DNA of 58,916 bases, counting the filler, from Basidioascus undulatus (lineage: Eukaryota), in NCBI GenBank assembly GCA_000826855.1. It is 6 parts of 6 records of this genome, joined end to end, with 100 filler letters (N's around TTAATTAATTAA, not from the genome) between each part and the next. Parts side by side here need not be neighbours in the genome. Positions count along the whole stretch, not along the records: positions 25,656 to 52,534 come from JTLS01000177.1; 5 more parts are not named here. One strand, 5' to 3'. Every line of letters starts with the position of its first letter. Position 1 is the stretch's first letter. Below are positions 4,682-52,692 of this stretch, one piece after another. The translations under genes and the position numbers were made by a program. The notes beneath the pieces are model-generated. The model was not told the DNA's origin, ran no database searches, and worked only from the letters and a program-made list of their open reading frames with translations.

Positions 4682-6031
4682 TTACGCCTCGGGCGCGGCC
4701 TCGCCGGACGCCTCGGGGGCGGGCGCAGGCTCGTCCTCCTTCTTGGTCTCGGACTCCTGCTGCGGTCATGCCACAGCGTTAGTCTCTGAGCAGCGTCAAC
4801 TACCGGCCGCGAACAAGAAGCTCACCATGTCGCTCGTCCACAAGGTGAGGTTGTCGCGGAGGAGCTGCACAAGTGGAAACGTTAGACACCTCGTTCTCAA
4901 GATCCTTCCCCGGTTCGGATCGTCTTACCTGCATGATGAGCGTGGAATCCTTGTAGCTCTCCTCGGAGAGTGTGTCGAGCTCAGCGATGGCGTCGTCGAA
5001 CGCCTGCTTGGCAAGGTGACACGCGCGGTCGGGCGAGTTGAGAATCTCGTAGTAGAAGACCGAGAAGTTGAGGGCGAGACCGAGGCGAATCGGGTGGGTG
5101 GGCGGCAGCTCGGTGAGGGCAACGTCGGAGGCGGCCTTGTACGCCTCGAGGGACTTGTCGGCGGAGTCCTTGCGCTTGTCGCCGGTCGCGAACTCGGCGA
5201 GGTAGCGGTGGTAGTCGCCCTTCCTGTTAACCGTGAGAAACGTCAGCGGCGTCGACGCGATTGAGTGCACAAGCCGGTTTAAGGCCTCGTCGCAGCCCGA
5301 CACACCCCCTTCAGGGCGTGCAGAAGTCTGCGACAGGACCTGGTGCAGGCTACAAGGGCGATCGGGAAGATCGACGCACATCTTGTGGTAGAAGACCTTG
5401 GACTCGCCCGAGGCGGCCGAAGGGATGAGGTGCTTGTCGAGGACCTCGAGGATGTCCTCGCAAATCCGGGCAAGCTCGCCCTCAATCTGAACACGCCCGC
5501 GATCATGTCAGTTCTACGCGTTCGAGAGTAAGACGCATGTGGCTGTGTTCAACGCACCTTCTCACGGTAGCCCTTGATCATGGAGACCTGGGACTCATTG
5601 CCCTTCGACTCCTCCTTCTGCTCGATGGACGAAACAATCCTCCAGCTGGCACGGCGGGCACCCTGGTGAGGGCGCGTTGGGGGACGCGTCAGGGCACGCT
5701 CGGACCGCAGGATGCGGGGGAAAAAGAGCGCGTACGATGACATTCTTGTACGCGACGGAGAGCAGGTTGCGCTCCTCAACGGTGAGCTCCTGGTCGGACG
5801 AGGCGACACGCTTCATGCTCTCGACCATCTCTGCGCGACGGAACGAAAGCGCAAGATAGCGCGGTCAGCAAGCCCCTTGTATACCGCTGCCGTCCCGCGC
5901 TCCGCGCTCCGCCGCCCTGCCTCCTCGCGCCCTGAACTCGATCTGCTCGCCAAAACACACTCACCCTCGTAACGCTCAGCCTGCTCGGCGAGCTTGGCCA
6001 GGTAGACGCTGTCCTCGCGGCTCTCAGACAT
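4682..6031 (-). CDS. BMH1: 14-3-3 protein (7 coding exons; 5'-UTR intron 6032-6128 ends directly at the ATG)
   Basis: [97 protein letters not shown]. All introns GT-AG and in frame; TAA at 4682-4684. Confidence 0.99.
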
Positions 6032-42774: not shown

Positions 42775-42848
42775 GGCCGCTTAACTCAGTTGGTTAGAGT
42801 GTGGAGCTAATAACTCCAAAGTCGCAGGTTCGACCCCTGCAGTGGCCA
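42775..42848 (+). tRNA. tRNA-Ile(AAT), intronless
   Basis: GGCCGCT/AGTGGCC acceptor stem, ACTC/GAGT D-stem, TGGAG-CT-AAT-AA-CTCCA anticodon arm, GCAGG-TTCGACC-CCTGC T-arm; oligo-T terminator about 8 nt downstream. Confidence 0.98.
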
Positions 42849-52104: not shown

Positions 52105-52450
52105 AGGAGAGGACTGTATGGTGGGCGCGGGCGTGAGTGACCTAGGACACACGAGATTTGAGTCGGCGGGACTGTGTGCTGAGCTTGCTGCTTTCTGGCT
52201 TGTGGGGAATGACTGTACTTTGTAGATCAACTGTCGTTGTTATATCTTATCGAACTTTCCTCTCCCTTCCCTCCATTACTCAAACTGCGTAACTTAACAG
52301 AATGTCGGCAGCGGACAATGCGACTGAAAGCTTTTGTCGTCGCTGCTTTCAAAAGGGATGCCTCTTCAGTCGTGTGCACACCTCTTAGGGTTGTCGCTCT
52401 GACGTTAGGTGGATGTTTGTCGGTCTGGTACACCAACAAAAATAAAACTC

Positions 52451-52456
52451 AAAAAA
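52451..52456 (-). terminator. RNA Pol III oligo-T terminator (T6)
   Basis: TTTTTT begins 2 nt after tRNA position 37 of the 5' half. Confidence 0.75.
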
Positions 52457-52457
52457 G

Positions 52458-52530
52458 TCGTAGTCAGATACTCTACCATTGAGCCAGCCGGCCGTGACCG
52501 ACGCAGGGATCGAACCTGCAACCCCCTGAT
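52458..52530 (-). tRNA. tRNA-Arg(ACG) in permuted order: 3' half (nt 38-73; 52530-52495), 1-nt spacer C (52494), 5' half (nt 1-37; 52493-52458)
   Basis: Halves reassemble into a complete 72-nt cloverleaf: GGCCGGC/GTCGGTC+A, GCTC/GAGT, TCTGA-CT-ACG-A|A-TCAGG, GCAGG-TTCGATC-CCTGC. Confidence 0.8.
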
Positions 52531-52534
52531 CGCG

Positions 52535-52634
52535 NNNNNNNNNNNNNNNNNNNNNNNNNNNNNNNNNNNNNNNNNNNNTTAATTAATTAANNNNNNNNNN
52601 NNNNNNNNNNNNNNNNNNNNNNNNNNNNNNNNNN
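52535..52634. other. artificial contig linker
   Basis: N44-TTAATTAATTAA-N44. Confidence 0.98.
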
Positions 52635-52692
52635 CTTGAACGACTGACCTCGTCATTACTAGTGACGCGCTCTACCACTGAGCTAAGGAGGA
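52635..52692 (-). tRNA. tRNA-Thr(AGT), 3' end lost at contig edge
   Basis: TCCTCCT-TA-GCTC-AGTGGTA-GAGC-G-CGTCA-CT-AGT-AA-TGACG-AGGTC-AGTCG-TTCAAG; AT-rich upstream. Confidence 0.9.

Follow-up and report, generated by a model that had tools for sequence, protein, structure and literature searches.

A candidate multi-copy family of circularly permuted tRNA-Arg(ACG) genes in a basidiomycete-like fungus

A tRNA-Arg(ACG) gene in which the 3′ half precedes the 5′ half was found at the end of a fungal contig, and the unit was found to recur at further loci in re-assembled sequencing runs. The existence of this layout and its multi-copy state are regarded as solid. The preferred reading, to which a probability of roughly 0.55 is assigned, is that a basidiomycete-like fungus carries, in its nuclear genome, a multi-copy family of circularly permuted tRNA-Arg(ACG) genes of type II (37/38), the transcripts of which would be matured by the splicing endonuclease, by ligation to a circle and by RNase P. 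A more far-reaching version is put forward tentatively, at somewhat less than even odds: every gene for the major arginine tRNA of the fungus, tRNA-Arg(ACG/ICG), would be permuted, with some tens of dispersed copies. Maturation would proceed through a circle formed by the yeast-type Sen endonuclease and Trl1 ligase and then opened by a single RNase P cut, the spacer C being retained as C74, and transcription would depend on an A-box-bearing remnant that an ancestral upstream 5′ half has left in the leader.

The window, i.e. the whole stretch of DNA that was analysed (58,916 nt; 1-58916), is composed of six separate contigs (6.3, 6.3, 6.3, 6.3, 26.9 and 6.3 kb) joined by N44-TTAATTAATTAA-N44 spacers, so that adjacency across the spacers is meaningless. 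The 26.9 kb contig (25656-52534) ends in the feature, which is read on the minus strand and takes up the last 84 bases (Table 1). Because the N spacer begins at 52535, the visible leader of the window copy amounts to 4 nt, as had been stated in the initial annotation.

Table 1. Positions of the elements of the permuted tRNA-Arg(ACG) locus in the window.
Feature	Position	Strand	Remarks
Leader, visible part CGCG	52531..52534	-	G at -3 is 52533 and could pair with C32 (anticodon-intron pair); contig end
tRNA 3′ half, nt 38-73, 36 nt	52495..52530	-	anticodon-stem 3′ strand, 5-nt variable loop, T-arm, acceptor 3′ strand, discriminator A
B-box-like GGTTCGATCCC in T-arm	52506..52516	-	upstream of A box in genomic order
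Intervening sequence of one nucleotide (C), linking discriminator A73 to G1	52494	-	proposed future C74
tRNA 5′ half, nt 1-37, 36 nt	52458..52493	-	acceptor 5′ strand, D-arm, anticodon-stem 5′ strand, loop CTACGA
A-box-like TGGCTCAATGG in D-arm	52476..52486	-	
Anticodon ACG	52459..52461	-	
Trailer C (52457) and T6 (52451-52456), Pol III terminator-like	52451..52457	-	directly after A37
Back-up T4 and T5 runs	52438..52447	-	within 20 nt after T6

With the halves swapped, all 21 of 21 stem pairs were formed (acceptor 7/7 including 2 G-U; D 4/4; anticodon 5/5 including 1 G-U; T 5/5), and the swapped 72-mer was identified as tRNA-Arg(ACG) by ARAGORN; the full cloverleaf described in the initial annotation was thereby reproduced, and the placement of both outer breaks at 37/38 was confirmed from the sequence. 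Four features of type II permuted genes were found: both halves lie on one strand, with the 3′ half first; a canonical cloverleaf and anticodon arise once the halves are swapped; the acceptor ends are linked by an intervening sequence (C at 52494, retained in a zero-mismatch contig of depth 298 from run X1); and both outer ends lie at 37/38, with sister-locus alignments stopping at 52449-52453 and 52525-52531. Two other ARAGORN readings of the swapped sequence with its flanks (Gly ACC and Ala CGC) were rejected, as they had non-canonical intron positions and borrowed leader bases; the 37/38 reading is preferred because the exact 72-mer yields Arg(ACG).

Chance formation was assessed by swapping the flanks round every junction position on both strands (116,122 windows) and searching the products with ARAGORN, introns allowed. 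At flank lengths of 37, 40 and 45, the matches were 14 neighbouring offsets at the Arg(ACG) locus only; at a flank length of 55, the ordinary tRNA-Ile(AAT) at 42775-42848 additionally appeared, trivially. In genomic order no tRNA was found at the locus by ARAGORN, nor by Rfam model RF00005, either at the gathering score or at E≤10. The T6 run after the 5′ half was present as annotated, and the accompanying claim that no 3′ half lies downstream agreed with a search of the 26.9 kb contig, in which no further downstream T-arm copy (≤3 mismatches in 17 nt) was detected, the other match belonging to the ordinary tRNA-Ile (42824-42840). A second D-arm copy downstream was likewise not found except in the tRNA-like gene of the next contig.

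The position of the A box within the 5′ half, with T6 directly after it, would also suit separately used pieces, in which the 5′ half is a stand-alone tRNA-half gene or is joined in trans as in split tRNAs. This is very improbable, since the halves are 1 nt apart on one strand, with no promoter space between them and no terminator behind the 3′ half; a single transcript is simpler.

Type II permuted genes have a TATA-like promoter upstream and a T-stretch downstream. Downstream, the locus is followed by the T6, T4 and T5 runs, its upstream side is beyond the contig end, and the ordinary tRNA genes of the window are AT-rich upstream. The intron-less tRNA-Ile(AAT) gene on the same contig (42775-42848, plus strand) is preceded, at a distance of about 20-35 nt, by an AT-rich, TATA-like stretch and followed by T4aT4 8 nt past its 3′ end; it is useful as the reference for tRNA gene layout in this genome. 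The next contig begins with a tRNA-Thr(AGT)-like gene whose halves stand in normal order (52635-52690, minus strand); it has an all-pyrimidine acceptor 5′ strand (TCCTCCT, U1) and reaches only 22.8 bits in Rfam. It is cut in the T-loop by the contig end; the contigs of this assembly thus repeatedly break within tRNA-like genes.

An assembly artefact at a repeat-induced contig end would account for a feature lying 4 nt from such an end, beside a contig that likewise ends in a tRNA-like gene. Contigs from independent k-mer re-assembly of two runs (X1 and X2; two studies, about 35 Mb each) bear on this explanation; both runs are possible sources of the window, and the samples are therefore not independent. 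The 52495/52493 junction claimed in the initial annotation was spanned at high depth in both, with 0-1 mismatches in X1 and 1 mismatch in X2, which makes an artefact extremely improbable.

Depth over the unique flank was 18 in X1 and 52 in X2. Against these values, a 53-nt contig covering 52472-52524 (T-arm, acceptor-C-acceptor junction and into the D-loop) with 0 differences had a depth of 298 in X1, about 16 times single copy, and a 56-nt variant with one difference had depths of 175 (X1) and 473 (X2), about 9-10 times single copy in both. Since there is overlap between neighbouring short contigs and the D- and T-arms also occur in other tRNAs, copy numbers were not read from the summed bin depths. 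Seven X1 contigs and eight X2 contigs follow the window through the 5′ half and T-run and depart from it at 52449-52453; among them are three with lengths of 3.0, 1.8 and 4.2 kb. Agreement of the diverging contigs with their consensus was 0.51-1.0, and only 0.51-0.75 where several share a break point, from which it follows that their flanks differ. One paralogue, found on a 4.2 kb contig of X1 and an 18.5 kb contig of X2, contains the whole unit 52451-52531 with 6 differences and ends 2 nt later; a second, in contigs of 2.6 and 50.7 kb, has 5 differences over 52469-52525. The repeated unit thus extends from A38, or from just before it, to the T-run. Taken together, the X1 and X2 contigs establish that the junction is real and present in some tens of copies, at no fewer than eight loci with unrelated downstream DNA.

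Such multiplicity also agrees with the main rival explanation, a tRNA-derived repeat family (dispersed and/or in short tandem arrays, descended from a tRNA-Arg dimer) that yields no decoding tRNA and is inert or gives rise to another small RNA. The junction depth corresponds to about 26 copies from the two variants alone, with summed depths higher still, and assemblies break inside the unit every time. Against this, the window copy and the 16-fold junction contig are free of defects, and the unit boundaries fall exactly at 37/38 with an immediate terminator at not less than eight loci. Exact boundaries and a terminator favour function, since selection would keep them and neutral decay would blur them. 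A repeat family is accordingly considered improbable, although it ranks ahead of the other rivals.

The sequence before A38 could be followed further in two sister copies, namely an 18-letter loose end (X2) and a 93-nt contig (X3, laid on 52473-52531). X3, a run of unspecified kind with zero depth over the unique flank and 0.21 of the words, was left out as evidence of expression. In both sister leaders, A38 is preceded by TYGAG and this in turn by a D-loop-like piece with GGTAG at its end; the CGCG of the window differs from the X2 leader at 1 of the 4 visible positions. A G at -3, three bases upstream of nt 38 as in the initial annotation, is present in 3/3 leaders (window copy, in which the visible leader is 4 nt only, X2 loose end and X3 contig) and can pair with C32. 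In algae, leader and trailer make up a BHB as the endonuclease substrate; for yeast-type enzymes it is an anticodon-intron pair with single-stranded sites. The leader of the paralogue in the 2.6 and 50.7 kb contigs has no tRNA likeness in the 30 nt shown and contains a T5 run.

In the X3 contig the leader piece corresponds to the true 5′ half as far as the D-arm, and the acceptor 3′ strand and C stand before it. As the first and last 30 nt of this 93-nt contig are identical, a 63-nt tandem or circular unit is implied, in X3 only, consisting of the 3′ half, C, the 5′ half to the D-arm and 5 nt, without nt 25-37 and without the anticodon arm. This is what a tRNA-derived repeat would look like and, together with the D-arm-like remnant directly before A38 in both sister leaders, counts against the permuted family and for the repeat family. 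The partial 5′-half remnants make the tandem-repeat context real. They are likely to be a vestige of an ancestral tandem duplication, as in the origin model of PMC3978253, and they may provide an A box upstream of the B box, a suggestion drawn from the two sister copies and not from the window copy.

The same leaders bear on the explanation that an ordinary intron-bearing tRNA-Arg(ACG) gene, with its 5′ half and intron past the contig end, is followed 1 nt on by a truncated copy serving as a 3′ trailer with terminator. With just 4 nt of leader in view, the window copy could have such sequence upstream, which weighs against the permuted family. Permuted genes have been proposed to descend from tandem intron-bearing tRNA genes, and one Ostreococcus gene has an additional 5′ half beside it (both according to PMC3978253); basidiomycete tRNA genes can also be intron-rich, as are 132/143 in Cryptococcus (PMC4090602). 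The visible paralogue leaders, however, lack a complete 5′ half (two have the D-arm-like pieces and the third, over 30 nt, is not tRNA-like). At the sister loci with visible leaders the explanation, which the initial annotation had named as a refutation, is thereby contradicted. Furthermore, a 36-nt trailer fully complementary to the gene's own 3′ half would hamper correct folding, and truncation exactly at nt 37 in each copy would be a coincidence. We regard this explanation as unlikely, and more so than the repeat family.

A normal-order joint of the two halves (52458-52530), direct or with inserted letters, was not found in the X1 and X2 contigs, which had possibly been thinned by a filter. 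The initial annotation had named the search for a normal-order Arg(ACG) gene as a check; the lack of a joint in these contigs is counted for the permuted family. An ordinary Arg(ACG) gene of different sequence may lie elsewhere in the genome, and this possibility is counted against it. Overall, the earlier interpretation is partly supported.

The open frames of the contig are split into short exons and encode a nucleoside hydrolase, an RRM protein, a BCS1-like ATPase and an alpha/beta hydrolase. The nucleoside-hydrolase exon matched 25 proteins, two of which had organism names (Sympodiomycopsis kandeliae and Parajaminaea phylloscopi, 51% identity each); both species belong to the Microstromatales (Ustilaginomycotina, Basidiomycota). 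The host is, on these protein matches, an intron-rich fungus and most likely a basidiomycete, in keeping with the fungal origin given in the initial annotation. On another contig of the window, a 14-3-3 gene frame (4803-5507, minus strand; Pfam 205 bits) shares 68-69% identity with proteins from Agaricomycetes, Moesziomyces and Sympodiomycopsis, with no closer named protein in the collection, which suggests a lineage without a close sequenced and named relative there.

In seven coding segments of the window, CGT, CGC and CGA make up 85/137 arginine codons, CGC being the commonest. From this share a high-copy Arg(ACG) family is expected, and the demand fits the copy number. The high demand for tRNA-Arg(ICG) and the lack of a normal-order joint in the X1 and X2 contigs speak against a repeat family without decoding function. 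With good reason we infer that the permuted genes would supply the cell's tRNA-Arg(ICG).

The machinery for each step proposed for the permuted family is universal in fungi. Pol III would start in the leader, transcribe the 3′ half, the C and the 5′ half, and end in T6; the B box stands before the A box, which is the wrong order for TFIIIC and is counted against the permuted family. The halves would fold as a normal tRNA body with the anticodon loop open. The splicing endonuclease, assisted by the C32:G(-3) pair, would measure from this body and cut before A38 and after A37, which would release the leader and the C-U(n) trailer, and the fungal tRNA ligase would join A37 to A38 to give a 73-nt circle. 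RNase P would then open the circle 5′ of G1. With a single C behind the discriminator A, the linear product would finish at A73-C74; the spacer C would thus remain as C74, and the CCA-adding enzyme would only have to complete the end, with no 3′ endonuclease step. Deamination of A34 to inosine would allow CGU, CGC and CGA to be read. These proposals draw on the maturation pathway of permuted tRNAs in algae (PMC3978253) and on the ruler mechanism and anticodon-intron pair of the eukaryotic endonuclease (PMC4090602). The C74 route would answer, in this case, the question posed for the 1-nt spacer of Thermofilum in PMC3978253.

Recorded from a few algae, one nucleomorph lineage and a crenarchaeon, permuted tRNA genes have been discussed as relics or as rare innovations tied to BHB-type splicing. 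In the titles and abstract openings of the literature searched, no fungal permuted tRNA gene was reported, and a 2026 review (PMC13578239), in its accessible part, names algae and archaea only as hosts of permuted tRNAs. A link to the end-specific telomere tandem arrays of Microstromatales (PMC13234504) was considered and rejected: the accessible part of that source makes no mention of tRNA, and nothing ties the contig end to a chromosome end.

Relatives were sought in other data sets, and none was found in those searched; this counts against the permuted family, as does the lack of a fungal case in the literature searched. In metagenomes, the exact junction pattern with a spacer of 0-12 nt gave 0 matches, whereas 109 loci fitted a more general pattern (T-arm, 21-33 nt, D-arm), with acceptor pairing of 7/7 in 3 and 6/7 in 3 more. 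These six were rejected, four as closed-hairpin tRNA-like modules (prokaryote- or phage-like) and two as adjacent ordinary tRNAs; none of the six was fungal or had an anticodon arm across its ends. The four modules (L063, L066, L084 and L096) combine a T-arm and a D-arm with a closed 7-bp acceptor-like hairpin. Some lie beside tRNA arrays and are preceded by an ACTTCGA-type motif; on the module itself none gave an Rfam match at the gathering score, and L066 also carries HEARO RNA.

At the Arg(ACG) locus itself, a sub-threshold Rfam match to YrlA (RF02553) was obtained (30.3 bits; gathering score 69), which is explained by the order T-arm, acceptor-like helix, D-arm. A YrlA or Y RNA-like tRNA mimic was rejected, as the score is far under the gathering score and the locus has an open acceptor, a 1-nt link and a full ACG anticodon arm. 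YrlA is, moreover, bacterial.

If the more far-reaching version is true, Opisthokonta would gain their first permuted tRNA genes, and no multi-copy permuted family would have preceded this one. Should the genes work, the ruler-type splicing machinery of opisthokonts would be able to run the circular pathway, the permuted layout would be able to spread as a gene family, and an essential isoacceptor would go unnoticed by standard tRNA finders in some fungal genomes. The 5′-half remnants in the sister leaders would be a rare snapshot of the tandem-duplication route to permutation, and the 1-nt spacer suggests a shortcut (spacer as C74) that could be tested in genetically tractable fungi.

Type II permuted tRNA genes were reportedly described from algae and a nucleomorph by Soma (2007) and Maruyama (2010), and the permuted tRNA-Tyr(GTA) of Thermofilum pendens is said to have been described by Chan, Cozen and Lowe (2011). 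Several known systems can be compared with the present locus on the basis of PMC3978253. With tandem intron-bearing tRNA genes, the precursor proposed there, it shares the partial 5′ half that paralogue leaders keep before the 3′ half, as if the outer segments had decayed; it differs from this precursor in having a shortened outer 5′ half, without nt 25-37 where this can be seen, and no outer 3′ half downstream. The tRNA-Tyr(GTA) gene of Thermofilum pendens likewise has a 1-nt intervening sequence, but is archaeal, with its junction at 59/60, an encoded CCA and an extra intron (PMC3978253). Table 1 of that source records permuted genes, mostly of type II, in C. merolae, Ostreococcus, Micromonas, the Bigelowiella nucleomorph and Thermofilum, with eukaryotic spacers of 5-74 bp and, within this table, no Arg(ACG). 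The present locus has the same organisation as the type II genes of Ostreococcus, Micromonas, the Bigelowiella nucleomorph and Cyanidioschyzon merolae, as far as these are covered there: the 3′ half comes first, the junction is at 37/38, a spacer links the acceptor ends, a T-stretch follows and CCA is unencoded. It differs from these algal and nucleomorph genes in its host, a fungus (Opisthokonta), in its identity as Arg(ACG), in its spacer of 1 nt as opposed to 5-74 bp, and in being apparently multi-copy, whereas at most two genes per tRNA (Gly(CCC) of C. merolae) are recorded in that table.
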